A stretch of 64,000 nucleotides of DNA, taken from NCBI GenBank assembly GCA_965644265.1, contig OZ286460.1:19654001-19718000 (forward strand). Direction: 5' to 3'. Position numbers and translations under genes: made by a program. The notes beneath the pieces are model-generated. The model was not told where the DNA came from and did no database searches. It was given only the letters and a program-made list of their open reading frames with translations. The stretch comes from Glycera tridactyla. Its lineage: Eukaryota. The stretch's first letter is position 1. Each line of letters begins with the position of its first letter. Of this stretch, positions 46,743-64,000 are shown one piece after another.

Positions 46743-46792
<50 letters not shown>

Positions 46793-46799
46793 GCACACA

Positions 46800-47597
46800 C
46801 TGGTGGACGTGTGCTGAATCAGCTATCGCTAATGGCTCATTGGGATTTGATCAGAATAACAAGATTTCATCGGGACTCAATCATTATAACAAGATGGAAA
46901 GTAATCAGTGAGTAAGAAGATTGGACAAAACAAGTTGGTGATAAAAGTCAGGACCAGCAAGGTTGATTAATTAGGGAAAAAGCATTAGGAGAGCTGGGAT
47001 GGAGATGCTGAGTTGTCAAGTCAGGATTGGTCCAGCGGTATGTTGAGAGGTAGCAACGCTGGATGCCAGGCATCTGACGTCATTTTGAAGGACACTGATT
47101 GGTCTGTCACCGGAAATCGAGTAATCATCATTAGTCTATCAAAAAGGTGGTGTAGGCGCTCTAGGAGGGGATTCACATCGGCAGCGCAGGCAGACCAGGA
47201 GGAGAGGTAAAGTGGGCATTCTTGCATGGAGTTATAATGGGCACAAACAGGGATCTGAGGTAAGCTTGACTATTAGAACCATGGACTCCTGAGTAGGTGG
47301 TCACAGAGGAAGGTACTATCTTTTTACCTAAGTTACCTGGGAACACCTGATTATCATTATTATTATTATTATTAGTATGATCTTCAGTGGTCCTGTTATT
47401 TAAGTTTCATCAGACAGCCAGTCATGCACCATGTCAAACGCGATCCTACTCTCACATGAAGCCAAGCAATTGTATGAAATGCTGAATTGATTGATTGATT
47501 GAGTTGATGTTGTAACATTAAACTAATATATAAATGGTATCTCTTTGTCCTTATCACTTTCCTGAAAGAGTATCCTGAAAATCCCTCCAGGATATTT
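46800..47597 (+). repeat. Putative 5' LTR (start not determinable; partner LTR absent from window)
   Basis: Non-coding block immediately upstream of the PBS; contains a CRE, two inverted CCAAT boxes and ATTAAA at ~47515; no second copy found in 63210-64000. Confidence 0.5.
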
Positions 47598-47613
47598 TGG
47601 TGGAGAATCAGGG
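47598..47613 (+). promoter_or_regulatory. Primer-binding site, tRNA-Ala type
   Basis: TGGTGGAGAATCAGGG; TGGTGGAGAAT is complementary to the ...ATTCTCCA-CCA 3' end of eukaryotic tRNA-Ala; located ~540 nt upstream of the gag ATG. Confidence 0.75.
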
Positions 47614-47760: not shown

Positions 47761-47766
47761 GTAAGT
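47761..47766 (+). promoter_or_regulatory. Major splice donor in the retroelement leader
   Basis: GAG|GTAAGT consensus between PBS and gag. Confidence 0.65.
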
Positions 47767-48136: not shown

Positions 48137-51100
48137 ATGTCGCTAAATGGAATACACGGACGTCGGCGGTCTAGACGCCTGCGTGGCTTAGAACCTTATA
48201 ATATTGACGAGTTTGATTTTGATTTATCTTCACATCACTCTGACCTTAGTCTGAATTTTGAGAATAATTGGGTGGATGTGTCACGGCCCAGCCCTACTGA
48301 TGGAGTGATTTCATTGCCAGATGAATGGTTTAGGGATGTGATACCTATCGGTGAAACTAGGGCGGAGAATAATATTGGAATACCATCCAGACCAGCATCC
48401 GTTGGTGATGTGGCAGTAGTGGATGTTGATTCATGGCCATTGGTGTCTACTGAAGGGTCTATAGTGGTCCGGACACCAGACACGTTAGACACATTGTCTG
48501 AACATTCTGATGACAACGTACTTGTACCTAGACTTGCAGATGGGGATACACTTTGGAATGCTGATGGGACACCTCGAGCTACATCGTCTCCTACATCAAT
48601 AGTGTCAGATGATGTTATCACTGGACCTTTGTTGTATCCAACACGAACAGTACATGGGGAAAGAAATCAGATGCAGAATGATGGGGTGTCACCTAATATG
48701 AATGCCTGGGACTATTCTGTGGGTAGCCCTCATCTTGTAACTCCTCCATTACCTGTTTCTGATTCTGATGCAATGAACCGGGACAGGGGGACACCTGTCT
48801 TGAGTGGCACGGCTTACCGTCCTGTGAGGGTGTCTGATATAAGGGCTACGACTGGTCGTGGCTTGTCTGATACATTGCCTGTTCAAATGTACCCTGAAAG
48901 TGGCTCTCCAGTTGAGTGTACATCTTCTGGTGGTGGGATATCCACGGCTGTTGGTTACATTCAAGGTATGGATAATAGGGCTGGTGGAAACATGGGGACT
49001 GGTGGTAATGTGGGCCCCTATGCTCCAGTGATTCAACCAGGTAGGTTAAATTTAGATGAAGACACGCCGATCAGAGAACCAAAGAACGCATTCGGAGTTA
49101 ATAAATCCACCAGACTTGCTGGGTCTGAGAGAGTGATAAGACCTAAACCAATATTTTTACGGGATCAAACGGTAAGTACCTCAAAACCAGCGGCTGCCTG
49201 GTTGAATACAAACACATCGGTTGTGTCGTCAGGTATGACTGCTATTTGCTCTGTAGCTGAGTCAATTCCTATTTTCCAGAGAGGGAGAGTGAGGGAGCAG
49301 GCAAGTAGATTTGAGGAGCAGGGACGAAATAGATACCACAGTCCAATATCAGCATATGGACAGGAAAGGGTGAGTGGCTCATCAACAGGATTGGTTAATC
49401 AAGACGGTCCTGTTTTTAGCTCAGAAACACTGAGAACACCAGGATCGTTTATATCATCATCTAGAAGGATACGGGTGAGTGAGTCTGGTCTTGATGAAAA
49501 TGTGCTAAACCAACTTCATAGACCAGAATTGTCTGGAATGGGTAATTACCTCGTTGATGCAGACCCTCTGGTGAGTGATGATGTGCATGAAATGTTTAGG
49601 GCATTACCCCGGGAACTATCTCACCCAGCGGCGGTCACACCCCTAGCTAAACCTGCGAAAAGTAAGGTAAGGCAACCTGTCTTTTGCCAAGGCACGAGTG
49701 AAAGAGTAACAACTTTACCGAATAATGCTGGTGAATGCCATAATAAAAAGCGAAAGATACCAGATCAACCAGGTACGGATGATGAGGTGCTGAGACCTGT
49801 GTTCAGGATGCCCCATTTTATAAGTAAAAATCAGGCTAGATGGACAAAAGGAGAGGCCTATTTTACTGGTGAATTCAATGTTGAAGGTAGGCCAGTGTAC
49901 GAATATATGTGGACACCTATAGGTACAAGAGATCCAACTGATCCTGACATGCAGGAGTGGATATATCAACAGTGTAAGGCGGCTGGAAAAATGGCACAAA
50001 AACCCAAACAATCAACGCAAAAACCTGGGGTGAGTTTTGCATCTGATGGCCACATTGGTGGGTGGAGGACAGACAACCAACCACCATCAACCAGCGGCTG
50101 GATTCCACGTAGGCCAGGTGGGTTGAGTAATAGGACTCCTATGAAAACAGGGATACAAAACCCTCCAACACCTGCTAGAGCAGGGGTGGATAAAAATTGG
50201 ATTGATAATCCAGATTACTATGGCAGGGATGTTATTTATAAAGTCACTGATGATGAGCTGTCGGATCCAGACAATGATAGTGAAGAGCCTGTGAGTGACA
50301 GTGATACTGGTGAGTATATAGCCCGACCTCGTAGAAATGAGAGGGGATCACTTAAAGACCGTATGTGTGCCATGATTGGTGACCTGGGTAGATCAGATGA
50401 TGAGGGGGACCGCCAAATTGATAGGTTGGGAAGGAATTCAAATGATAATGACCGTGCCCGGGATGTAAATGATAATTTGCTTCAAAATGTGGGTCATGAC
50501 CAAACTAGACAGGCACACCGACGTGCTAATGTACGGAATGTTCGGAGTCATGAACGAACAGCCGGTGGACAAAGTTTGGGAGGAGACAGACAGAGGTCAA
50601 TTGTAGTGGAAGGGAGTTCATCCATAATAAAATTAGAAAAATTCAACCCGACAAAAATGAACCCATTAGACTGGTTTTCACTTTTCGAAACATATGTGTC
50701 ATACAAAAACCTGTCAAATGAGGATGCTCTGCGAGTTTTTAGATTCAGTGTTGCGGGTGATGTTGCATCATGGTATTCCCTGCTGCCACCTGTGAGGTCG
50801 CTCAGGCAACTGAAAAATGCTTTCGTCAAGGAGTGGGGTGTAGACCCTGAAAAACGCTATGCTTATTTTAACCGATTATGGAAGATGAAGCAGAAGGGGC
50901 GTGACAGCAAGAAATTCATTAGATCAATAGTGAAAAAGGCACGACTGATGTATGGAGTGTCACCTGAGCGTCAATTGAATGAATCTCAACAGGATGAGGT
51001 ATGCAAAATTGTATTGAATGCTCTGGACAAAAGTGTGCGGCAATTTGTGTTAACCCAACGTGCAGAATCCCTAGATGAAATAATAGAAGCGGCCTCTCTA

Positions 51101-51667
51101 GCACAATCACTAGATAGTGGTTCTGAGAAATCCAGTGGGTCTGAAGATGAGTCTTCCTCTGATACTGATGGGGAGGATCGGAAGAAGAAACATAAGAAAA
51201 AGAAAGATAAAAAGAAGGATGATGATAGGGGAAATACATCCAGGGCCATTATGGTCTTGTTGGATGAGATGAAATCTATGAAGACATCATTACCAGATAC
51301 AGTAGCAGAAGCAGTGGGAAAGCAGGCTGCTGAAATTAAAAAGTCAACTGGGACCAGGCCTAAAAAAAATATGAATGATGGCGGAGGGAGTGAGAATCCT
51401 ATACCTCAAAATGGGGGATATAGAAGCAGGATGGGTCAGAGAAATAGCAACGAGAGGGCTAGGTCTGTATGTTACACTTGCCAAAAACCAGGCCATTTTG
51501 CCATTAATTGTCCTGAGAGAGGGAAAGGTGGAGGCAGAAGCAATATGGCTGTTTGTCAGCTATGTGCCCGGACGGGGCATGTAGCACCACAATGTCCCAG
51601 ACTGAACAGGCCAGAGAAACCTGTAGACAGACATTCACATGAACAGAGACAGGGGGAGGACCAATAG
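48137..51667 (+). CDS. gag: Gag polyprotein, 1176 aa from first ATG, with ~830-aa N-terminal extension
   Basis: Capsid-like block from ~50624 (KLEKFN...DWFSLFE...GDVASWY); two CCHC knuckles CYTCQKPGHFAINC and CQLCARTGHVAPQC at 51470-51595. Confidence 0.93.
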   Translation: MSLNGIHGRRRSRRLRGLEPYNIDEFDFDLSSHHSDLSLNFENNWVDVSRPSPTDGVISLPDEWFRDVIPIGETRAENNIGIPSRPASVGDVAVVDVDSWPLVSTEGSIVVRTPDTLDTLSEHSDDNVLVPRLADGDTLWNADGTPRATSSPTSIVSDDVITGPLLYPTRTVHGERNQMQNDGVSPNMNAWDYSVGSPHLVTPPLPVSDSDAMNRDRGTPVLSGTAYRPVRVSDIRATTGRGLSDTLPVQMYPESGSPVECTSSGGGISTAVGYIQGMDNRAGGNMGTGGNVGPYAPVIQPGRLNLDEDTPIREPKNAFGVNKSTRLAGSERVIRPKPIFLRDQTVSTSKPAAAWLNTNTSVVSSGMTAICSVAESIPIFQRGRVREQASRFEEQGRNRYHSPISAYGQERVSGSSTGLVNQDGPVFSSETLRTPGSFISSSRRIRVSESGLDENVLNQLHRPELSGMGNYLVDADPLVSDDVHEMFRALPRELSHPAAVTPLAKPAKSKVRQPVFCQGTSERVTTLPNNAGECHNKKRKIPDQPGTDDEVLRPVFRMPHFISKNQARWTKGEAYFTGEFNVEGRPVYEYMWTPIGTRDPTDPDMQEWIYQQCKAAGKMAQKPKQSTQKPGVSFASDGHIGGWRTDNQPPSTSGWIPRRPGGLSNRTPMKTGIQNPPTPARAGVDKNWIDNPDYYGRDVIYKVTDDELSDPDNDSEEPVSDSDTGEYIARPRRNERGSLKDRMCAMIGDLGRSDDEGDRQIDRLGRNSNDNDRARDVNDNLLQNVGHDQTRQAHRRANVRNVRSHERTAGGQSLGGDRQRSIVVEGSSSIIKLEKFNPTKMNPLDWFSLFETYVSYKNLSNEDALRVFRFSVAGDVASWYSLLPPVRSLRQLKNAFVKEWGVDPEKRYAYFNRLWKMKQKGRDSKKFIRSIVKKARLMYGVSPERQLNESQQDEVCKIVLNALDKSVRQFVLTQRAESLDEIIEAASLAQSLDSGSEKSSGSEDESSSDTDGEDRKKKHKKKKDKKKDDDRGNTSRAIMVLLDEMKSMKTSLPDTVAEAVGKQAAEIKKSTGTRPKKNMNDGGGSENPIPQNGGYRSRMGQRNSNERARSVCYTCQKPGHFAINCPERGKGGGRSNMAVCQLCARTGHVAPQCPRLNRPEKPVDRHSHEQRQGEDQ

Positions 51668-54600
51668 GACAGGTCATGGCCACCTGCAGAGAATGTAATA
51701 ATGGCATTGGACAATTATAGCAATCATCATACCAATGTAGGCGGAAATTTAGAAATTATGACATGGGATAGAGAAACAATAAATGCACCTATACAACAGA
51801 ATCTGATACAAATATTGATTAAAAATCGCCTCATAACGGCCATGTTGGACACAGGCGCCAGTGTGTCGGCTGTGGAGAGTGATTTAGTGATGAAGCTACT
51901 CCCTCATACCTATTCTACAAGAAAGAAATATACACAGGGAAAAGTGAAAGATGCCCAGGGAAATTATGTCAAAGTAGACGGGATAGTACAGTTGGATTTT
52001 GAGATCCAAAGTGAGAACTTTAGAATTGATGCTCTTATTGTTGAAAAGTTGCCAGTGACACTAATCTTAGGACTACCATTTTTTGTTGAACATGATGTAA
52101 GATTATCATGGGACTCTGTGAAAATTAGAGGAAATAATGCTGAGATTATTGCAACTCTTGTGCGTACAGTGGACAGCAGAGATAGTTTTAATTTAAAGGT
52201 TTGTTGTGACACGGTATGCGGGTCGTACCAAGCGACAATCCTTGATGTATATGGATCATCCAGGGGATGTGCCAAAGGCAGCCCTGTGTATGAAGACATA
52301 TGGTGTGTGAAGACACATAGGGATTTGGTAGATGGTGAAAATCTGATTGTATCCCCGGCAATTGCATATGTGGGCCCCAGGGGAACAGTTACAATTGAGA
52401 TAATTAACCCTACTTCCAGTGATGTAAGACTGTCCGCTGACCAGATAGTAGCAGTAGGAAAATTGTATGCTAAACCAAGTTCTATGGATAATATGTTGCT
52501 AAAGAACCAAGAACCTGTGAGGGGGATGAACTTAGAATATCCACAGATGACCAGTAATGAAACTCAGATGACCAGTAATGAAACTCAGATGACTAGTAAT
52601 GAAACTCAGATGACCAGTAATGAAACTCAGATGACCAGTAATGAAACTCAGATGACCAGTAATGATACACAGATGACCAGTAATGACTTGCAGATGGCCA
52701 GTAATGAAGCACAGATGACCAGTAATGAAACTCAGATGACCAGTAATGAAACTCAGATGACCAGTAATGAAACTCAGATGACCAGTAATGATACACAGAT
52801 GACCAGTAATGACTTGCAGATGGCCAGTAATGAAGCACAGATGACCAGTAATGAAACTCAGATGACCAGTAATGATACACAGATGACCAGTAATGACTTG
52901 CAGATGGCCAGTAATGAAGCACAGATGACCAGTAATGAGACGTGCACAACCAGTAATGAAACCCAGGTTACCAGTGAGGATGCTCAGATTTCTAGTAATG
53001 ATGCTCAAACAATTGATGCTAGAACTCAGATTATTGATGATGGAGTACAAACTAGTGGTGATATGATTAACCTGATGCAGGTATTACGATCATTTGAACT
53101 GAAAGTACCGCCGGTAATGATTATGATTGAAACCAATGATTTAAGGGTTGTGGCTACACAAACTGAACCAGATATATTGAATCAGACGCGTGTGATAACC
53201 TACAAACCGATTGACTGGCAACAGTATCTAGATGATGACTTGCCTGAGGATGTTTATGAAAAACTTATCAAGGTGTTGGAGTTCCATAGGCCATGTTTTG
53301 CTATGGACTTGTCAGAGTTAGCAAGAGTGAATGATTATGAACATGTTATTGAACTGAAACATGATGCCAAGGTAGTGCACCAAAAACCGTATCGTGTGAC
53401 ACCTGAGAATAGTATAGAAATCGAGAGACAGATAAAAATTTTGCGTGAACATGGGCTAGTAGATTTTAGTGATTCCTACTGGTCGAGCCCTGTGTTATTG
53501 GTAGACAAGAAACCTGATTTCCCTGGAGCACCAATCACCAAAAGACTTTGTATTGATCTGAGGAAATTAAACAGGGAAATTTTACTGAATAGCTTCCCAG
53601 TACTGACGCTCGATGAAATTATTCATCGACTGGCGATAGCTAAACATAAATGGTTTATTAATCTTGATTTGAAATCTGCATATTTCTCTATCCCTTTGTC
53701 ACCAGAAAGTCAACATCTGGTGTCATTTGTTACGCAGAGTGGCTGTTATAAAATGACTTCCTGTCCGTTCGGGTTAAAAAGCTCGCCGAGCAGTTTCTCT
53801 CAGGTGATGATGAGGTGCTTAGCACCATTAGATCAAACCAAGATATTGAACTATATGGATGATATCGTGTTGACAGGAGACACGCCTGAGGATCTCCTGG
53901 AAACATTGAATGCAGTGTGTTGGAGACTCAGGACTGTTGGGTTATCACTCACGCCATCCAAGTGTCATTTCATGAAGAGACAGATAAAATTCTTAGGCCA
54001 AATATTTGATCAGACAGGATGCCGATCAGACTATGCGAAGATAAAAACTGTGGCTATCTTTCCCACCCCGACTGATGTACGAGGAGTGCGTAAGTTGATG
54101 GGATTGTTGAATTGGCAGAGACGGTATATAAACCGATTTAGTCATTATGCATCAGTCCTTTATGAACTCCTTACAAAGGATGCCGAGTTTGAATGGACTG
54201 ATAAGCATCAGAAGGCAATGGACTGGCTGAAAACTCAAGTGCTGGAAAATGTAGTGCTATACTACCCGAAAGTAGACCACCCCTTTGTGATATACACGGA
54301 TGCATCGGCAAGAGCTGTGGGCTCATTAACATTACAGAAGGATGGTGACAGTCAATTGAAACCTGTGGCATTTCTCAGCCACTGCCTATCTAAAGCACAA
54401 CAAAAATATCACTCAAACGAACTGGAAGTTTTAGCAGTTGTTATTGCACTGACACATTTGAAATATTTCATCACAACGGAAACTCCTGTTGAAATCTTCA
54501 CGGATAATGTTACTAATGTATTTTTCCAATCATTGTCTCTGAAAACAGGTCGGCTATTTCGCTATCATCTGTTCTTATCGAGATATAATTTGAAAATCAG

Positions 54601-57499
54601 GTTCACTAATGGGTGGAGAAATCAATGCGCCGACACTTTGAGTAGATTTCCGAATTTGGAAAATTTGGAAGAACTGCAGGATGAAGGACTAGACAACATT
54701 ACACATACAGATATACCGACATCAATCAATTACAAACACACAATACAAACAATAAACTGCATAATGTCTATGGGTGAGCTGACTTCCGATAGCGCTGAGG
54801 TATTTGAATCAGAGTTTGAGGCAGATGAGAGTTCTCTTTGGCAGGTACCTGATAAATACCTTTTGCCAGTCATTTCAGAGTCTGTTTCTGAGAAGAAAGT
54901 AGTACCCCAATGGTCAGATAGATTGGTTACACAAGAAGCAAGTAGTATTGCGAATGAGCGATTATATGACAGGGAATCGGAATTTTGCATGTTTGATAGA
55001 CCAGCTGGGGCACGAGAGGCGGTGACACGGCCTGTTCCGGCTGATAAAGCGAGTCATCCTGGTGGGCAGTCGGATGAAGAACCACCACCGGGAGGGCTGC
55101 CCGAGCATCACGACGAGGGTGTAGATGACACGCAGGCTATAGACGCTCCCCTCGTACCGAGGCCTCGACTGTTATCAGATGAACGGCAGTCAACTGTAAA
55201 CAATCAGAAAGACATGGGAGGTATTAGGGATGCTGATTATGATATCGTGGGTGACGGTATATTTGAGACTGGGGATGAACTGATAAAAAGACAGACAAGA
55301 TTTTGTGAAGGAAGCCCTGAAAACCTATTGCGATTTTTCCGTGATGAACAGACAGATATACGGTTTGAACAAATTGACGACCGCTTGGGGCAAGACTTTG
55401 AAGACCTGCAATTATCATTTTTACATGATACCGCCAAATTGGCTGAAGAACAACATTTAGACAGTGATTTTAAACATATTATTGAGTACAAACAGGCTGG
55501 TGAATTGCCTACCATTAAGAAACAGGCAATGAAGGTGTTGGCTGAAGACCACAAATACTTTTTGGATGAAAATGGAATACTTTACCGCATATATACACAT
55601 TCAAAAGGGAAATCTGCTAAAACATATAGACAATTGTGTCTACCTGCTCAATATCGAGCCAGGATGGCCCATTTATTTCATGATGGACCAATGGCTGGTC
55701 ATAGAGGTTTTGACAAAATGTACACATTGGTGATGCAGTATTTCTACTACCCCAGGTGTTATGAAGAATTGCTGAAGTATTGTCAAACCTGCGAAATTTG
55801 TGCTAAATCAAAGGTCACTCAAGGGCAAGTGAGAGTACCGCTGCAAATTAGAGAAGCTCCTGTATATATATTTGACACAGTACACATCGATTTTTTGAAG
55901 TTATATAAGACACGTGACGGATATGTATATGTTTTATCTATGATTGATCGGTTCACACATTGGGCGGAATTAGTACCCACTAAAGATCAATTAGCAAAGA
56001 CAACAGCTTTAGCTGTCGTGCGAGAATGGATATTTCGCCATGGCTTAATGAGATGCATTATTTGTGACCGATCTATGTCATTCATGGGGCAAGTATTCAG
56101 AAATATTTTGAAATTACTCAAGGTAAGAATGATTTTCATTTCACATATGAACCCAAAAAGTAATAGCCGGGTGGAAACACTTAATCGGTTGGTAATATCT
56201 AAACTGAGAGCGTCCTTACAACAAGTTTCACATACAGATTGGACAGAATTACTACCTGCAGTGGCATTCACATTGAACACGACTCCACTGCCTTGTGGCT
56301 TTTCACCATATCAATTGGTGTGTGCTAAATCACCAAATTTGGGGAGTCAAATGCTTCTAACTGATCCCTCCATGATACCTGAGGATCCAAGAGAAGTCAT
56401 CCGGGAATTGTGGGGAGATTTAGCAATTATTCGTATGGAGGCTCAGAAAAATATGCTTGAACTCGATAAAGCCATGAAAGCTAGGTATGATCGGAAATAT
56501 AGAACTAAACCTGATGAATTTCGTGAGGGAGATCTAGTGTGGCTGGTGGCACCACACACCATCCTGGTGGGTCAGGGCAAGCTGAAATCAAAGAAACTGG
56601 GCCCATTTGAAATTGCATGTAGGGTGGCCCCCACATTGGTTCAATTATGCCTGGTTGATTCGGCAGTGTGGTTGCCATCATTGACCAGCACCAGCAGGTT
56701 AGTGCCATACGTACATCCTGTTAATTCATCATTACGTATGCAATTACAAACTGAAGTAAAAATTAATAAGAAACATGAGCGCTTTGCAAATTTGGGACGA
56801 GTTGAGTGGGAACAGGAACTAAATGAGAATGATGATGTGACAGGTAACTTACCCATAAATGATGATGAAAACGCTTCACAGGATGTGGCTGACCAATGTA
56901 ACTCCCCACCGTTATTGGATAGTGGCGAAGGTGTGGATGATGTGCCTCAAAGAATGGTGTCCTCGACATCTGGTGATGGAGGGGTGTCCAATAGTCGAAG
57001 AAATGTACAAACTGTATGTGAATCCACAGTGATATCCGGTGTTGGAATGTCTCATGGTGGGCACACAAAAATAACAGAAATGTCAGATAGTGGAATAATT
57101 GACCCACCAGCTCAACCTACGGCCAGTCATATAATTCACTCTGATGACGTCCAAAATGATGCGGATGCGGATGATGGAAATGAGAGAGCTGTTGCTTCTC
57201 AAAAATGTAGATCAAAACGTAAATATTTACAAATGTACAATCGTGCAAAAATATATGGTAACCGATTGGCTGCTACTTCCCGGGGCAAGCCTACTAGCAA
57301 TGTCAAACAAAAAGTGGCTGGAGTATCCAAAAGTGATTTGGCCAAGGATATAGTAAAACTGCTTGCATCAAGGAAAAGTAAAGATGGTACGAGGAGTTTT
57401 GAGTGTTTGTACGCGACTCATCCTAGGTCATGGCTGAAGGAGTCCTTGATCCCGACAGTTTTTATCGACGATTATGATTATCGGCACCGGGTGAAATGA
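51668..57499 (+). CDS. pol: Pol polyprotein (protease, RT, RNase H, integrase), same frame as gag after a single TAG
   Basis: LDTGAS (D at 51848); RT YMDD (53852); RNase H YTDAS/ELE/FTDN (54299 onward); IN HHCC (55679-55801), D-D-E core (first D 55889), GPF (56600). Confidence 0.97.
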   Translation, partial: DRSWPPAENVIMALDNYSNHHTNVGGNLEIMTWDRETINAPIQQNLIQILIKNRLITAMLDTGASVSAVESDLVMKLLPHTYSTRKKYTQGKVKDAQGNYVKVDGIVQLDFEIQSENFRIDALIVEKLPVTLILGLPFFVEHDVRLSWDSVKIRGNNAEIIATLVRTVDSRDSFNLKVCCDTVCGSYQATILDVYGSSRGCAKGSPVYEDIWCVKTHRDLVDGENLIVSPAIAYVGPRGTVTIEIINPTSSDVRLSADQIVAVGKLYAKPSSMDNMLLKNQEPVRGMNLEYPQMTSNETQMTSNETQMTSNETQMTSNETQMTSNETQMTSNDTQMTSNDLQMASNEAQMTSNETQMTSNETQMTSNETQMTSNDTQMTSNDLQMASNEAQMTSNETQMTSNDTQMTSNDLQMASNEAQMTSNETCTTSNETQVTSEDAQISSNDAQTIDARTQIIDDGVQTSGDMINLMQVLRSFELKVPPVMIMIETNDLRVVATQTEPDILNQTRVITYKPIDWQQYLDDDLPEDVYEKLIKVLEFHRPCFAMDLSELARVNDYEHVIELKHDAKVVHQKPYRVTPENSIEIERQIKILREHGLVDFSDSYWSSPVLLVDKKPDFPGAPITKRLCIDLRKLNREILLNSFPVLTLDEIIHRLAIAKHKWFINLDLKSAYFSIPLSPESQHLVSFVTQSGCYKMTSCPFGLKSSPSSFSQVMMRCLAPLDQTKILNYMDDIVLTGDTPEDLLETLNAVCWRLRTVGLSLTPSKCHFMKRQIKFLGQIFDQTGCRSDYAKIKTVAIFPTPTDVRGVRKLMGLLNWQRRYINRFSHYASVLYELLTKDAEFEWTDKHQKAMDWLKTQVLENVVLYYPKVDHPFVIYTDASARAVGSLTLQKDGDSQLKPVAFLSHCLSKAQQKYHSNELEVLAVVIALTHLKYFITTETPVEIFTDNVTNVFFQSLSLKTGRLFRYHLFLSRYNLKIRFTNGWRNQCADTLSRFPNLENLEELQDEGLDNITHTDIPTSINYKHTIQTINCIMSMGELTSDSAEVFESEFEADESSLWQVPDKYLLPVISESVSEKKVVPQWSDRLVTQEASSIANERLYDRESEFCMFDRPAGAREAVTRPVPADKASHPGGQSDEEPPPGGLPEHHDEGVDDTQAIDAPLVPRPRLLSDERQSTVNNQKDMGGIRDADYDIVGDGIFETGDELIKRQTRFCEGSPENLLRFFRDEQTDIRFEQIDDRLGQDFEDLQLSFLHDTAKLAEEQHLDSDFKHIIEYKQAGELPTIKKQAMKVLAEDHKYFLDENGILYRIYTHSKGKSAKTYRQLCLPAQYRARMAHLFHDGPMAGHRGFDKMYTLVMQYFYYPRCYEELLKYCQTCEICAKSKVTQGQVRVPLQIREAPVYIFDTVHIDFLKLYKTRDGYVYVLSMIDRFTHWAELVPTKDQLAKTTALAVVREWIFRHGLMRCIICDRSMSFMGQVFRNILKLLKVRMIFISHMNPKSNSRVETLNRLVISKLRASLQQVSHTDWTELLPAVAFTLNTTPLPCGFSPYQLVCAKSPNLGSQMLLTDPSMIPEDPREVIRELWGDLAIIRMEAQKNMLELDKAMKARYDRKYRTKPDEFREGDLVWLVAPHTILVGQGKLKSKKLGPFEIACRVAPTLVQLCLVDSAVWLPSLTSTSRLVPYVHPVNSSLRMQLQTEVKINKKHERFANLGRVEWEQELNENDDVTGNLPINDDENASQDVADQCNSPPLLDSGEGVDDVPQRMVSSTSGDGGVSNSRRNVQTVCESTVISGVGMSHGGHTKITEMSDSGIIDPPAQPTASHIIHSDDVQNDADADDGNERAVASQKCRSKRKYLQMYNRAKIYGNRLAATSRGKPTSNVKQKVAGVSKSDLAKDIVKLLASRKSKDGTRSFECLYATHPRSWLKESLIPTVFIDDYDYRHRVK
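52544..53005 (+). repeat. In-frame 21-nt tandem repeat in pol (QMTSNET x19 plus ~3 degenerate units)
   Basis: Unit CAGATGACCAGTAATGAAACT, read directly; variant block NDT/NDL/ASNEA recurs three times. Confidence 0.97.
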
Positions 57500-57715: not shown

Positions 57716-59122
57716 TTATAGATTGTTTTGGCCATTCTCGATGTTGATGGCGCTGGCCAGGGATGTGAGCGCTCGGCGGTTTCGGTTGTGTGGACGGCTA
57801 CGGCGGGCTAGCTGTGTGCGTCGGATGATGGGTCGAGATTCCTGCGCCATGGGTCGGATTGTCATTACAAGCCTCCGTCTTGGTGGGTTGGCTGGAGGCT
57901 GATGTGGATAATCTGAGCCACCGTGATTGGTCTCTGACACGGATTCCGTGACTTCATTCGCTGCAACGGCCTGGTCTTGCGTAATGTAGTCAACGGCCAT
58001 CCGTGTGGATATTGTCATGTCATTTGTACTCAGATCCATGGGTGACCCTTGGGGGGATGATGGAGCTGAATGGGGGTGACTGGAGGGGCTGCCCTCTGGT
58101 GTCCTCTCAGATTGGGGGGTCTCCGATTCCCCGAAGAATCTGTAGATGGGGTACATTCCTGTGGGTGACTGGGATACCCTGGGATTTGTACCTGATGTGG
58201 ATGTCTCCAGAGTCGGGTCCTCATATTGGGTGGCAACACTGGTGTATGTTGTCTCCACTTGGGTACCTTGGTCAACGGTACCTGGTGAGGTGGTTGGGCC
58301 ACTTGTGGGAATGCGTGGGTTGGTTGACCTGTTATGGTGATAGGCTGCAGTGCGTACCTGGGAAGGGTGTAGGTGTGACTGGTTGTTCATCATGAGGGTG
58401 GATGGAGCACTGGGCATTGCCGCAGTGTTAGTTAGCAAGGTCGAGGATGATCCAGGGTGTGTAGCCCATGTTGGGGGCATGGGTACAACTTGGGTTGGAT
58501 ACCCACTGTTGTATGGATATCCTGATCTTGCACGCCCGATGTGTGGTGGTATCACACATTCAAGTCGACCAGTTGTCCAGTACTCCCGTACCGCATTGAT
58601 CAATGGGTGACACGGTTGAATGTCGTACATACCATGAAAATGGATGCGGGAATGCAGTTCGATATATTCAGTCTGGTCATGAATGGTGAGGGCGAGTACC
58701 GAGAACGACCTTGGTGTCGAGAAGACATGATGCAGCAGGGCTCTGGCCCCTTCGTCCTGCATTGGATGTCGGCTGCGCTGGCGTCCATACACTTGTAGAA
58801 AATGATCGGCACCCACTTCCCGGATAGTAGGTGCGCTCACATACTTATATTGCAGTAATTTCTTCATTGCAAGGCAGAACCGAGTGTTCCGCTCGACTTG
58901 CATCTCGGTAGGTTGGTAGAAGGTTACGATCTGTGACTCCGTCATGATGTTTGATGTCAGTTTGTCTTGGATGATGAAATGAGTATCAACAGGAACAACT
59001 GTGATGAGTGTGTGGTAGGGTGTAGATCCAAGTGAGGAATGATCTGCAGAGGTGAGTATCTCGAAATGTGGCATCAGGGGGAGGAGCTGATTCTGATTGG
59101 AAATCAGTGAGTGGTGAGTCAT
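57716..59122 (-). CDS. Antisense accessory ORF of the retroelement, 468 aa, unknown function
   Basis: 1407-nt uninterrupted ATG-initiated frame filling the pol-env gap, with no long sense ORF opposite it; ordered-looking N-terminal ~190 aa, S/T/P-rich disordered C-terminus, Arg-rich tail. Confidence 0.85.
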   Translation of the reverse strand: MTHHSLISNQNQLLPLMPHFEILTSADHSSLGSTPYHTLITVVPVDTHFIIQDKLTSNIMTESQIVTFYQPTEMQVERNTRFCLAMKKLLQYKYVSAPTIREVGADHFLQVYGRQRSRHPMQDEGARALLHHVFSTPRSFSVLALTIHDQTEYIELHSRIHFHGMYDIQPCHPLINAVREYWTTGRLECVIPPHIGRARSGYPYNSGYPTQVVPMPPTWATHPGSSSTLLTNTAAMPSAPSTLMMNNQSHLHPSQVRTAAYHHNRSTNPRIPTSGPTTSPGTVDQGTQVETTYTSVATQYEDPTLETSTSGTNPRVSQSPTGMYPIYRFFGESETPQSERTPEGSPSSHPHSAPSSPQGSPMDLSTNDMTISTRMAVDYITQDQAVAANEVTESVSETNHGGSDYPHQPPANPPRRRLVMTIRPMAQESRPIIRRTQLARRSRPHNRNRRALTSLASAINIENGQNNL

Positions 59123-59189
59123 GATTGGGGAGTTGGACGCTGTGAAATGAAAAGTGCATGGGGTAAGTTTATGGTGTTTTTTTTTTATA
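59123..59189 (-). promoter_or_regulatory. Candidate minus-strand splice acceptor (AG at 59141-59140) and TATAAAA (59189-59183) upstream of the antisense ORF
   Basis: Minus strand reads gTATAAAAAAAAAAcacc...cttac...cacttttcatttcacAG|cgtccaactccccaatcATG. Confidence 0.55.
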
Positions 59190-59625
59190 CAGTGATAAGA
59201 CGTAATAGTGGGAGCCCAAATGGATTGGACAGGTGGGCAGGTAGGTTGTTGGGGTCGTAGATTACGACATCACTGTGGCACAGGTGGTCGAATGATTAAA
59301 GGGGGGTCAGTTAGTTGGTGATGATGGTCTGACTTGATGTAAAGTAGACCATTGTATGTATGTCTACTCGATGCATAGTGGATATTGGTGAAACGGAGCT
59401 TCAGCTAGGAGCTGTGGAGGTGTAAGATTGAAGCCGAGGGTAATTAATCAACATGATGGAAAGTGAATGGTAGTTGCTCATGGCGGAGAGCTATAGAAAA
59501 TGGGGTGAGGCTTAATCAGACCGTTTAGAGAATTAAATTGGGCAGATGGAAGAAGTATAAATGAGAGACGATGGACGACGGCACGGGAGGCGACTGTATG
59601 ATTAATCACGCAGGATACGCGTGGC

Positions 59626-59644
59626 CTCTGTTTTATGTTTTCAG
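59626..59644 (+). promoter_or_regulatory. Splice acceptor for subgenomic env mRNA
   Basis: ctctgttttatgttttcAG|G, 4 nt before an in-frame ATG (59649) and 49 nt before the signal-peptide Met (59694). Confidence 0.65.
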
Positions 59645-59648
59645 GAAT

Positions 59649-62600
59649 ATGTGTGATGACCGCCTGAGTGAGCACGACATGGCCGGGAAGGAGATGTACC
59701 CAACGTTAATTGTGTTAATAGTCACGTATGTAAATGTAATTAGTGTAAATAGTCAGATGAGTGAAGGTATAGGTGGTGACAATGTCCTGAATTATGGTGT
59801 TTGGTTTGCACCAAAAGGCAGTTATCAAATATCAAATGAGAATTATCATTTGATATTGGCGGTAGATATACCTGGATTGAGAGGTGGTGATGAAAATGTT
59901 AAAGCCAGGTGTAATATGGGAGAGAAAGGGAAGTCTTGTCAAGGGAAGAAATTGCAAGCTGTAATAACACAGTTGAACAGAGGCAAGAGACTTATCGATG
60001 ATAGTACCTGCCAATTGTTTGAAACAATAGTAGATGAGATAGATACCTACGAGTTAGAGATGGACCAACGTTTGGCCAGAGTGATGCTGACTACAGACTA
60101 TGCATGGTGGGTGGATGATGTGATGCGGAATAAATATGAGAAAGTGCTGAAATCTAAAACAATTAAAAAGAAGTCAAGACAACGAGAAAGGGCAGATGAT
60201 GCCTACTGGTTGATGAGTATAACTAATGAAAATGAGACTGGTGAAGTGCAGACAGAAAAAAATTTGCAGCTAGGACATGGGACCAAGAATAGGCCACGGA
60301 AGGGGGTTGGCTATATCGAGACGCCTGTCATCAAGCTGAAGAAGGGCCATGTGAAGACGCCAGTGAAACACTTACTGGTGGCTGGGAGGCGATGGCAGCA
60401 ACAAATAGCTGACAATTGTGTTTATACAAATATATCTGAGTGGGGTGAGGATGTGGGTACTTCTCCAAGTGATTCTTCTGTTGCAGACAGTTTGCAGAAA
60501 CTACATGGGTTACTGATGGCTGTCCAGAAAAAGGTTACAAATTCTGTACTAAAGGATATTGGAATATTCAATGAATCAGAATGGATGAAGTGGTCTAGTT
60601 CCCAAGAAATATCTCGAGACATGCAGAATATGGTTGTTGATTGGGTGTGGCGAATTCAAAATGAAATACCTCCTAAAAAGTTGCAATTGGAATTGATTCC
60701 ATTATTGCGAAAACTGGGTGTGTACAGTCATCAATTAGCCAGAGAAAGGAAAAATACAGCCCGAGTTTCCGAAAGATATCTGAATAAAACTGTCATAACC
60801 CGACTAATTGAATCCTTGGACCACTTGGCAAATTTACGACTTGTGAATCAGAATGTAGTGGATATGCAGAGATTTCGAAAGCGGATTCGACGACTATGGG
60901 TTCGCATGAATATGGCACTGAACCAACAAGACCAAATGCCGTTGCATTGGTCCACTATTAAAAGTGATATGTGGGAATCGCTATTTGGTTCAGCTACGTT
61001 TGCTCAAGTTGACGAAATAATTCATGTGATTAACGGTGTCACCAACAATAGTAGTAATCGACGGGAAATTCGGAAATCGTATTTCGCGAACACCACTGCG
61101 TATATTACAGTGTCTTCGAGAATGGCCATCGAGTTTAAACGTGTGGTGAGACGTCTGAAAATGGCCATCGGCCTGTTGAGTGATCAGTCGGAGATGGAGG
61201 GGGAATATGACATAAATGCCATGTCATATATAATAAACAAAGCCACCAATATAGCCATAGGACTATCATTAGTCCGTTCAAAAATCGAGCACTTTGCAGA
61301 TGGTCTCCGAGAATTGCTCAAGGGAAAATTGACACCTCAAATAATCTCGGAAGATGATTTGCAAGAAGCATTGATACAGCTGGAAATAGAGCTGAGGGCA
61401 AGAGAGTCAAGGTTTCATGTTCTGACATTTGACTCTGCCCACTATTATTCAATTAAGAACATTGCTCATGTAAGAAATCAAAACCAGTTAATAATTGTAT
61501 TACCAATAGAAGTAACTAGACAGTCTCAAAATTTTCATTTATACCAGTTATCAGTATATGACATTCCAGTCAATAGCATTGAGAATTTGACTTCACGATT
61601 GGTTTCGGATATTGCAATAGTAGGGTTAAGCGAGTCAAAAACAAGGTTCATACAACTCACACATCAACAATGGATGTTATATGACAAAGAAAATAAATGG
61701 ATAAGCAACAGTGATATTCAAGTGTATAATCATGAGAATCTTACATGTGAAATGGCTCTATTCTGGAACAAGATGGTAGAGGTTAAGAAGTTATGTGAAT
61801 TCAGATTAGAACAAAAGCCGCTACAAATGAAATTGCACATCCTACCTAGGGGTGAATTGGTAGTCATGAATGCCGAAGAACTGATAGTGGCTTGTCAAGA
61901 CCGCCCCTATGTGAGGAAATCAGGGTGTGAAGTCTGCATACACCCACTAAAATGTGGATGTGAATATGTGGGTAGATTAAAGGATGATAGATTGGTGATC
62001 AACTCGAGAATGACAAAATGTGTGACTGAAGTAGAGAAGAGGCCACCCAAAACCATACTTCATATGTCTATCATACAGTATCTAGTACCTGAGGAATGGT
62101 TGCTGGGTGATGGTAGTGAAATTCATAGACAGAAAGACAATATCCCTGATATACCACTCAGGGTTAATCAGGGGCATTATGAGCAGTCAATATGTGGGCC
62201 AATTGAGTTTTCAATGAACCTTGAGAAGGCATTGGATAGGGTAAAAGCAGGTGAAAAATTATCACCAATTCAGCAGATTGATTGGGCATCCTGGAAAATA
62301 ATTCATGTTTCAGACTTTTTCACATTATCCACATGTGTCAGTATGGGTGAATGGGTATTGAGCACAGTGATAGTACTGGCTCATGTAAGAACAGCTCGAA
62401 GAGTGAATGAATTGGCACAGAGGGTTAATGGCATCATCATAATGAATCAACTTCGAGCAGCTAGGGCTATGAATGTTTTGGTTGGAATGAATACAAACAT
62501 GACAGAAACAAATAGATCAAATGCAGGGGGTGAGATAATTAGCCAGCGTGAGGGTATATTACTTCTGTTGCTGGTAGTCATTATACAACTTGCAATTGTG

Positions 62601-63209
62601 TTGGTGTGTCTTTTGAAATACTGTTTGAAAGTACAACCACATTCAGAAATAGCATGGGTCGTTTTGACATTACGAGGTAGGGATAAGTGTACAGTTAAGG
62701 TTAAGAAGCTCTATTGTGCCCCTCATGCGATTCGAATGCTAGCAGAAGGACCGCCCTCAGATATTAGATTAATTGGTCCCATACTTAAATCGAAATTATA
62801 TGTCTACTGGGGAAACAGGGAATTGATAGATAACGGAAATGGGGTCATTTATTACCTACCAAATGTGATTGATATTTCTATGTCAAGAGGACTACGAATT
62901 GCAGCCCTACTCAGAGAAACCTATCAAGTCACAGTTGACATTGTGTACAGGGATCGAGAGGGAAAATGGACTGCAGGGAATCGGTTGAGGTGTGATGAAC
63001 CTACAGAGGTTCACCCATATGTCAGAGAAAACAGTAATAGTAGTAGGCAGAATAGAATTCGAGAAGAACTACCACCTCCTTATGAACTTCATCAGCTTCG
63101 AAATCTCCGAAGCACTACCCGGGAAGGCCGGATTATGTTAAGCCCATTACCTTCGAGTTCATCAGATAGCGACCAATCAACAGAACGAGGACATACCAGA
63201 ACCAATTAA
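59649..63209 (+). CDS. env: Envelope-like glycoprotein (F-type/class I fusion-like), ~1170-1190 aa
   Basis: Signal-like MYPTLIVLIVTYVNVISVNS; LNYGVWF-x(11)-HLILAVDIP N-terminal motif; polybasic RFRKRIRR; SLFGSAT; GKLTPQIIS; Cys cluster; two C-terminal hydrophobic segments. The open frame extends up to ATG 59571. Confidence 0.85.
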   Translation: MCDDRLSEHDMAGKEMYPTLIVLIVTYVNVISVNSQMSEGIGGDNVLNYGVWFAPKGSYQISNENYHLILAVDIPGLRGGDENVKARCNMGEKGKSCQGKKLQAVITQLNRGKRLIDDSTCQLFETIVDEIDTYELEMDQRLARVMLTTDYAWWVDDVMRNKYEKVLKSKTIKKKSRQRERADDAYWLMSITNENETGEVQTEKNLQLGHGTKNRPRKGVGYIETPVIKLKKGHVKTPVKHLLVAGRRWQQQIADNCVYTNISEWGEDVGTSPSDSSVADSLQKLHGLLMAVQKKVTNSVLKDIGIFNESEWMKWSSSQEISRDMQNMVVDWVWRIQNEIPPKKLQLELIPLLRKLGVYSHQLARERKNTARVSERYLNKTVITRLIESLDHLANLRLVNQNVVDMQRFRKRIRRLWVRMNMALNQQDQMPLHWSTIKSDMWESLFGSATFAQVDEIIHVINGVTNNSSNRREIRKSYFANTTAYITVSSRMAIEFKRVVRRLKMAIGLLSDQSEMEGEYDINAMSYIINKATNIAIGLSLVRSKIEHFADGLRELLKGKLTPQIISEDDLQEALIQLEIELRARESRFHVLTFDSAHYYSIKNIAHVRNQNQLIIVLPIEVTRQSQNFHLYQLSVYDIPVNSIENLTSRLVSDIAIVGLSESKTRFIQLTHQQWMLYDKENKWISNSDIQVYNHENLTCEMALFWNKMVEVKKLCEFRLEQKPLQMKLHILPRGELVVMNAEELIVACQDRPYVRKSGCEVCIHPLKCGCEYVGRLKDDRLVINSRMTKCVTEVEKRPPKTILHMSIIQYLVPEEWLLGDGSEIHRQKDNIPDIPLRVNQGHYEQSICGPIEFSMNLEKALDRVKAGEKLSPIQQIDWASWKIIHVSDFFTLSTCVSMGEWVLSTVIVLAHVRTARRVNELAQRVNGIIIMNQLRAARAMNVLVGMNTNMTETNRSNAGGEIISQREGILLLLLVVIIQLAIVLVCLLKYCLKVQPHSEIAWVVLTLRGRDKCTVKVKKLYCAPHAIRMLAEGPPSDIRLIGPILKSKLYVYWGNRELIDNGNGVIYYLPNVIDISMSRGLRIAALLRETYQVTVDIVYRDREGKWTAGNRLRCDEPTEVHPYVRENSNSSRQNRIREELPPPYELHQLRNLRSTTREGRIMLSPLPSSSSDSDQSTERGHTRTN

Positions 63210-64000
63210 TTTAATCATCGCGAAGAATGATGTGACAGTATATATGGACATGTCGGGAGTAAATCACATTGACGTGAGCGAAGAACCCCCCCCCCCCCTT
63301 TTCCAGTCATGGGATGGGGAACCATGGAGCATCAATTATCAGCAGCCTAGTCATGAGCGTGGTGAGGAGAGACATCTGGTGGGGCATACTGGAAGTACGC
63401 TTGGATAGCCAGCCAGATTGTCTCTATATAGTTGTGATTAGCACTCAGTTGTACATAATGAATACGCATATAATATATATATACAGCACCTGTCATAAAG
63501 TGGTATGGCACTGCACTTCACATTAGTTGAACAACATGAGACCACGCGTAGAGACCAAGTGGTGACCTCTCACCAATATAGTATTTGATCAGACACGCGC
63601 ATATCATGAGTTAATGTATTCAGGGGAGTAATCAACTTGGATACCACAATCGCACATCGATGGGTGGAGCATCAGCACACCTTCCAATGAGCAGTGATGA
63701 GAAGGCGGGGACTGTGTACGGAAAGTGAAGCATTCGTTGAGGCAGCAGAGCGGAACGATCATGCATACCAATTGAAGGCCATCATTCTTGACTGTATTTG
63801 TGAAAGCTCTAAGGACTTGAAACTTCTGCAAAAGTGATGGAGTGAATCACAAGTGTATGGTGTGGTGGTGTGATGTACTTTAGTCGGTGATGGTATGACC
63901 AAGGGTGAGGTTTCATGGTTAATGACACTAGCAGAGACTAATGAACTGAGGTGAAAAGTGCCATGAATGGTGATGACATAGATACATTTTCTATAAGACT

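Follow-up and report, generated by a model that had tools for sequence, protein, structure and literature searches.

The window, that is, the whole 64,000-nt stretch of Glycera tridactyla DNA analysed here, carries an envelope-bearing Ty3/gypsy element with an additional open reading frame (ORF) between pol and env. This ORF lies on the opposite strand and, to judge by its substitution pattern, behaves like a gene under purifying selection. In the best model, to which we give about an even chance, the antisense RNA would start from a predicted promoter in the 3'UTR of the element, and splicing would remove the stretch opposite env and join the first exon to an acceptor at 59139 or 59043.

The element and its insertion site

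The element is 18.9 kb long and runs on the plus strand in the order LTR-gag-pol-env-LTR. By its two LTRs, its primer-binding site, the CCHC knuckle of its gag and the Pfam domain order of its pol (PR-RT-RH-IN), it is an env-bearing member of the Ty3/gypsy group (Metaviridae). Six full-length copies are 99-100% identical and three more are found at 79-82% (lower bounds for the region). The two 805-bp LTRs of each of the six show no mismatch. On these sequence comparisons, the element is very young and its family recently active. Its main features, together with the neighbouring host exon, are the following:

46323..46374, minus strand: host PLC-beta exon of the Y domain, lying downstream of the insertion (on the upstream side, the exon ends at window-equivalent 65956)
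46790..47594, plus strand: 5' LTR, 805 bp, TG...TA; the target is a (CA)n microsatellite
47598..47608, plus strand: primer-binding site, presumably for tRNA-Ala
47761..47766, plus strand: leader splice donor, second best among 1113 sense GTs, candidate donor for the env mRNA
48137..51667, plus strand: gag
51668..57499, plus strand: pol
57716..58945, minus strand: antisense ORF, 409 aa from the conserved Met 58945
58946..59122, minus strand: in-frame extension of the antisense ORF up to an ATG at 59122, 59 codons, open in this subfamily alone
59631..59644, plus strand: env splice acceptor (AG 59643-59644)
59649..63209, plus strand: env, with its ATG at 59649, F-type through its similarity to a relative that matches Baculo_F
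Between env and the 3' LTR: 3'UTR, 1.7 kb
Window-equivalent 64909-65713, beyond the window end: 3' LTR, identical to the 5' LTR

The gag stop codon abuts pol in the same frame (window 51665-51670), an arrangement shared by the related copy C17, and suggests stop read-through between the two genes. Further downstream, between protease and RT, pol contains an in-frame tandem repeat with a 21-nt unit (window 52500-53050).

Env has no Pfam or PDB match of its own. It is, however, 30% identical over 1167 aa to the env of the related locus L141, which matches Baculo_F at 2.4e-12. Indirectly, via L141, it can thus be assigned to the F type, as a third sense ORF related to the F proteins of baculoviruses and paramyxoviruses. 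A furin-type basic motif is absent from the window env at the position where L141 has one. Env is under purifying selection, with an omega of 0.25 against C17. An earlier note on this DNA had placed a plus-strand splice acceptor just before env, at 59643-59644, and this site is well supported and beyond chance, both by its score and by its conservation. It is retained in C17, C32 and C7 (that is, as far as the C7 subfamily), deleted in the decayed C39 copy, and beats shuffled sequences on its own (P 0.003-0.03). Across 11 lineages, the combined Fisher p reaches 7e-5 and 7e-8, with controls at 0.33-0.89. The donor is probably 47761, the first strong donor past the primer-binding site. RNA from the 5' LTR would serve as genomic RNA when unspliced and as env mRNA when spliced to 59644. 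The strongest sense acceptor of the element sits past the env stop (window 63290-63307, plus strand); it is retained in C17 and lost in C32.

Strong sense donor motifs number 11 in the N-terminal half of gag, where synonymous shuffling predicts about 2 (2.3). These are spaced by 90-200 nt (window 49041-50310, plus strand), and comparable arrays are observed in C17 (L086 4116-6012, 7 vs 2.0) and C7 (L079 7291-8425, 7 vs 3.0). They possibly protect the long genomic RNA through U1 binding, or provide alternative donors for env.

The host intron, of phase 0, separates two Y-domain exons of a PLC-beta-type gene, and the element lies antisense within it; the host donor is at window-equivalent 65955 and the host acceptor at 46374. 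A (CA)n/(TG)n host flank, in some cases imperfect, was observed at 30 out of 30 LTR loci examined (window 46750-46790; L047-L076). The same flank occurs in four other families of the same RT clade (L078/L079, L158/L174, L162, L143/L167) and is absent from three families of the other RT clade. This distribution points to (CA)n/(TG)n as the insertion target preference of the element's RT clade; a literature search yielded nothing specific on it.

The antisense gene and its product

The antisense ORF is open in all six full-length copies and in C17. Its conserved start is 58945, and not the ATG at 59122 from which the earlier note had read it. Met 58945 is retained in C17, C32, C7, C18 and C31, four of which have an in-frame stop one to three codons upstream of it. 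The ATG at 59122 is missing in all three copies at about 80% identity, whose frame is broken upstream of 58945.

Over codons 1-140 of the antisense ORF, the comparison with C17 yields a pN of 0.081, a pS of 0.689 and an omega of 0.046 (bootstrap 0-0.10; synonymous sites near saturation), the differences being distributed as 19/8/64 over the three codon positions. For the tail of the ORF omega is 0.32, and for the integrase half of pol it is 0.17. Omega is 1.6 and 3.5 in the other same-strand frames of the region; on the opposite strand, the frame with the same third positions has 0.19 but contains stops. Tandem partial copies of the antisense ORF are also found outside intact elements (L084 2382-8309; G000 C39 near 49158-49172 kb).

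The product is predicted to comprise an alpha/beta domain of about 125 aa, a Pro/Ser/Thr-rich tail (37%) and an Arg-rich end, with no signal peptide or membrane segment by inspection. A first structural model of the N-terminal domain (pLDDT 62) had a best Z of 4.2, and Foldseek returned no match at E 0.001 in PDB or BFVD. A second model (pLDDT 72, core above 80) displays a helix-strand-strand unit twice, followed by a helix. Compared with 48,161 chains, its best Z is 4.5 (rmsd 5.5, 72 aligned residues) and none reaches Z 5. Pfam searches with the full ORF and 10 aligned members gave no match at E up to 1. Homologues outside this genome were found neither in a word-indexed search, nor in the Atlas (no usable match), nor in metagenome contigs; the sole match from profile searches was repeat-like and false. 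An HxH motif raised the reading of an HUH endonuclease, which was rejected: the motif is not kept in distant members and no such fold occurs among the structural matches. By analogy with gene23 of the maize element Grande and with retroviral antisense proteins, the product most likely acts in the nucleus to regulate expression of the element itself.

Routes to the antisense RNA

The candidate signals for antisense expression lie in the interval between the two start codons and in the 3'UTR:

59037..59056, minus strand: second acceptor candidate, exon from 59043; it overlaps an Inr-like motif
59052..59246, plus strand: cluster of sense donor motifs (sites 59052, 59114, 59163, 59233, 59241)
59094..59128, minus strand: two CCAAT boxes, presumably NF-Y-type, 155 and 183 nt upstream of Met 58945; the upstream box supplies the first bases of the ATG at 59122
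59139..59167, minus strand: first acceptor candidate with a branch-like motif (AG 59141-59140)
59183..59189, minus strand: TATAAAA at the edge of an A-run, unconserved, rejected as a promoter
63568..63576, minus strand: antisense donor candidate (GT at 63573), in the 3'UTR
63660..63760, strand not assigned: promoter-like conserved block, with a CCAAT box at 63684 and a conserved stretch at 63730-63759

In the best model, the predicted minus-strand promoter at about 63600-63760 would drive antisense transcription. A short first exon would then be spliced over env, removing a 4.4-kb intron, onto 59139 or 59043, and translation would start at 58945. The earlier note had proposed a spliced antisense RNA from the 3' LTR, as for HBZ of HTLV-1, with a donor at 63573. 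The spliced RNA is the best-supported reading and the site is conserved as donor-like. But 63573 belongs to the 3'UTR, the 3' LTR beginning at window-equivalent 64909, and the protein is not HBZ-like.

The 3'UTR evidence comes from eight copies, all related, four of which are non-autonomous and without an intact antisense ORF. A donor-compatible site lies 96-114 nt from the conserved CCAAT box in all eight, and four variants of it occur. Ranked among the 76-86 minus-strand GTs, it comes first in seven copies; in the window copy it is fourth of 78, and the donor there is weak (3.0 bits). The block itself is conserved to C7, its flanks are not, and it occurs 13 times in the genome with no control match. 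A role as an RNA structure was rejected (fold z 0.04 to 1.5), and the block is read as a DNA element because no RNA fold was detected. No general enrichment of minus-strand donors was found in the 3'UTRs of 10 lineages (17 vs 11.6, P=0.08; 7 vs 6.1, P=0.4). In C91 and C39b, two lineages of the window's RT clade, the 3' stretches scored contain no minus donor that reaches 2.5 bits. Past the antisense ORF, the sole polyA-like hexamer is non-canonical, which also counts against the best model. An HBZ-like start within the predicted first exon was considered and not adopted, an ATG being in frame here and not in C17.

On the acceptor side, the earlier note had described a branch-like cttac (59167-59163), a polypyrimidine tract and an AG ending at 59140, with an exon from 59139, and all of these are present. 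The exon would begin 17 nt before the ATG at 59122; this distance is correct, but it concerns the subfamily-specific ATG. The AG is kept in C17, C32 and C39 and lost in C7 and C18. For the alternative exon from 59043, the CAG is aligned in five of six copies. The minus strand is here C-rich and G-poor, so that pyrimidine tracts come cheaply, and the score of 59139 varies between two approximate matrices. With the C-rich matrix, 59139 ranks 11 out of 859 (P 0.14-0.38), the antisense acceptor is not beyond chance over 12 lineages (Fisher p=0.08, 1/12 below 0.1), and one real host acceptor scores -1.8. With the T-rich matrix, tried afterwards, 59139 reaches P=0.01, all four host acceptors score 4.3-7.5, and the 12 lineages give a Fisher p of 0.008 (4/12 below 0.1), against 0.33 for a control inside the ORF. 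Among the 167 minus-strand AGs between the 63573 donor and the ATG, 59139 is the best with the T-rich matrix and the third with the C-rich one. As an acceptor, 59139 is moderately supported by these scores, with p at 0.01 or 0.14 depending on the matrix. The cttac motif is also the reverse complement of the sense donor at 59163, part of a strongly enriched cluster.

The main rival is an unspliced antisense RNA starting near 59040 from an internal promoter, the two CCAAT boxes between the genes. We hold it to be a serious contender with a somewhat less than even chance, and it may coexist with the spliced route. In 5 of 7 clade lineages, the antisense strand has a CCAAT 155-190 nt before the conserved ATG (P=7e-4, for an interval picked after seeing the data and with the window and C7 alignable). 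It is lacking from this interval in C18, in C39b and in the five lineages outside the clade. The last 98 nt before the conserved ATG are free of ATGs in five of six copies, whereas three to four ATGs occur further up. Because an unspliced internal start accounts just as well for the CCAAT boxes and for the lack of ATGs in the last 100 nt, these features count against the spliced model. Sense donors are also enriched there, five being found in 305 nt against 0.55 expected. The enrichment is observed in the window, C17, C32 and C7 (P at most 0.011), is borderline in C39 and C18, and is limited to the window's subclade. The boxes may fire in the sense direction too, the 59233 and 59241 donors serving env, but a sense start given by them would lie downstream of three of the five sense donors. 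Such a promoter also leaves the conserved 3'UTR donor and block unexplained. As HBZ itself has spliced and unspliced forms (PMC12457699), both routes may operate.

The earlier note had also envisaged capture of 59139 by the host PLC-beta pre-mRNA, truncating the enzyme. The pre-mRNA would be spliced from window-equivalent 65955, and the truncated message would probably be degraded by NMD. The phase and the stop are right: the PLC-beta intron is phase 0 inside the Y domain, and the phase-0 read from 59139 is RPTPQS-stop. Under the T-rich matrix, 59139 scores 5.7, above the 4.3 of the true host acceptor, and is not exceeded by any earlier AG; with the C-rich matrix, two earlier AGs (62806 and 61391) score higher, and 253 AGs come before 59139 in all. 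In HTLV-1, an ift81-hbz chimera reached up to 24.2%, while intact host mRNA was sustained, according to the available text of PMC12457699. The insertion is very recent (no LTR mismatch). Trapping would concern one of six insertions, so it cannot be the selected function of the site. A trap of consequence for the host is unlikely; a minor chimeric leak from PLC-beta at this insertion is plausible, with odds that we would place clearly below even. The host gene seems incidental, as one insertion in six cannot explain family-wide purifying selection on the ORF.

An antisense RNA from the 3' LTR, spliced to 59139 and translated from the ATG at 59122, is improbable. Two modest minus donors do exist in the LTR (4.8 and 3.4 bits) and 59139 scores well in the window copy. 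However, 63573 is 1.3 kb outside the LTR, and the close copies without the ATG at 59122, with their broken frame, speak against translation from there. In C7, the minus donors of at least 2.5 bits in 3'UTR and LTR together are confined to the 3'UTR (the homologous site and one weaker site). Most improbable of all is an antisense promoter at the TATAAAA of 59189-59183, a motif that the earlier note had correctly seen, in a region where the CCAAT boxes do have support, but which forms the edge of a length-variable A10-11 run and is not kept in C17, C32 and C39 (shuffle P=0.13). In C17 and C32, a transcript begun 30 nt below it would still contain upstream ATGs in another frame.

Known systems and related elements

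Deltaretroviruses and plant Ty3/gypsy elements are both known to carry antisense protein genes. The layout described here resembles that of HBZ or of the plant Retand/Grande antisense genes, although their defining domains appear to be missing. HBZ is likewise an antisense coding gene of an env-bearing LTR element. Its spliced form is a precedent for spliced antisense RNA (PMC1459196). Spliced and unspliced forms are both described for it, as predicted here, and an antisense provirus within an intron may yield a chimera with a host exon (PMC12457699). In contrast with HBZ, the present protein has no bZIP or other Pfam domain and a predicted alpha/beta fold, and its candidate promoter and donor lie in the 3'UTR, 1.3 kb outside the LTR, with an intron that would span env. 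The element is, moreover, of the Metaviridae type, unlike HTLV-1, which belongs to the Retroviridae.

Plant Retand, Grande and RIRE2 elements share with this one a conserved antisense ORF downstream of pol in a Ty3/gypsy element, kept here in most copies, and a regulatory role has been proposed for the plant ORFs (PMC7264820 and PMC11963269, in the parts available). Grande gene23 is described there as nuclear and transcribed from its own promoter (PMC7264820), a precedent for the internal-promoter route. The present element differs by its animal host and by an env that stands head to head with the antisense gene. TRP28 (PF04195) was not matched in Pfam by the full antisense ORF or by 10 aligned members. 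Oikopleura Tor elements also bear env, which is either spliced or served by an internal promoter after pol, the latter again a precedent for an internal promoter; an antisense gene is absent from the Tor description in the available text (PMC4402516). Gene order, F-type env and the presence of several near-identical copies are shared with the env-bearing "ancient errantiviruses" of invertebrates (Chary and Hayashi, PMC13524379, available text), from which this element departs by its extra antisense gene and its 2.1-kb pol-env spacer. That text has no occurrence of "antisense" or "splic", and its supplements may list related elements. Literature searches by title and the start of the abstract, a scope that leaves most subscription papers outside, found no antisense gene between pol and env in an animal Ty3/gypsy element.

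If the model is true, accessory antisense regulation would not be confined to vertebrate retroviruses, and a new protein domain and natural sense/antisense RNA pairs would be testable in a recently active family. Surveys limiting the pol-env gap may then miss such elements; one filter in PMC13524379 allowed at most 1000 nt, according to its available text. The antisense gene family carries more of the interest than does the host trap, which matters for this one allele only.

From 150 matches listed, 16 further env loci were compared. A minus-strand ORF of at least 170 codons lies between pol and env in 11 of them, representing about nine families; two others look intact without an antisense ORF, and the remaining three show disrupting insertions or rearrangements. 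Against a profile built from the window's group, C13 scores 13.0 bits, C39b 8.9, C47b 6.1 and C91 2.8, the best of 600 decoys reaching 5.9, so homology of the antisense ORFs within this clade is weak but plausible. Four antisense ORFs of a second group (L147, L148, L155 and L156) are mutually similar and not detectably like the window's; that of L149 stands alone. The pol clade of this second group is about 34% identical in RT to that of the window, and its antisense ORFs may be either an ancient or an independent acquisition. In RT and integrase trees, the first group forms one supported clade (99/97 and 100/99) and the second falls in another; the RT tree covers this genome's own families, with C47a missing and C13 represented by what is probably an unrelated RT (28% identity). 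In the second pol clade, the start codons of the two genes are 103-345 nt apart, and acceptor-like sites occur on both strands in three of four loci. It is conceivable, though rather doubtful, that two deeply split env-bearing Ty3/gypsy clades of invertebrates independently reached a complex-retrovirus architecture. Its parts would be an antisense gene that encodes a regulator with an undescribed alpha/beta domain and faces env head to head, a 3'UTR promoter splicing over env, a second internal promoter, and sense U1-site arrays guarding an 18-kb genomic RNA.

At the locus L146 (3432-7018), env follows straight after RNase H, with no antisense ORF before it. Non-autonomous derivatives of about 10-11 kb (L088-L093 and L188-L191) retain gag and the start of the protease and lack RT and IN. 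The LTR types of these two sets differ, their interiors share 84-96% protein identity (tblastx) and carry short antisense ORFs of their own, a combination that suggests LTR swapping between them.
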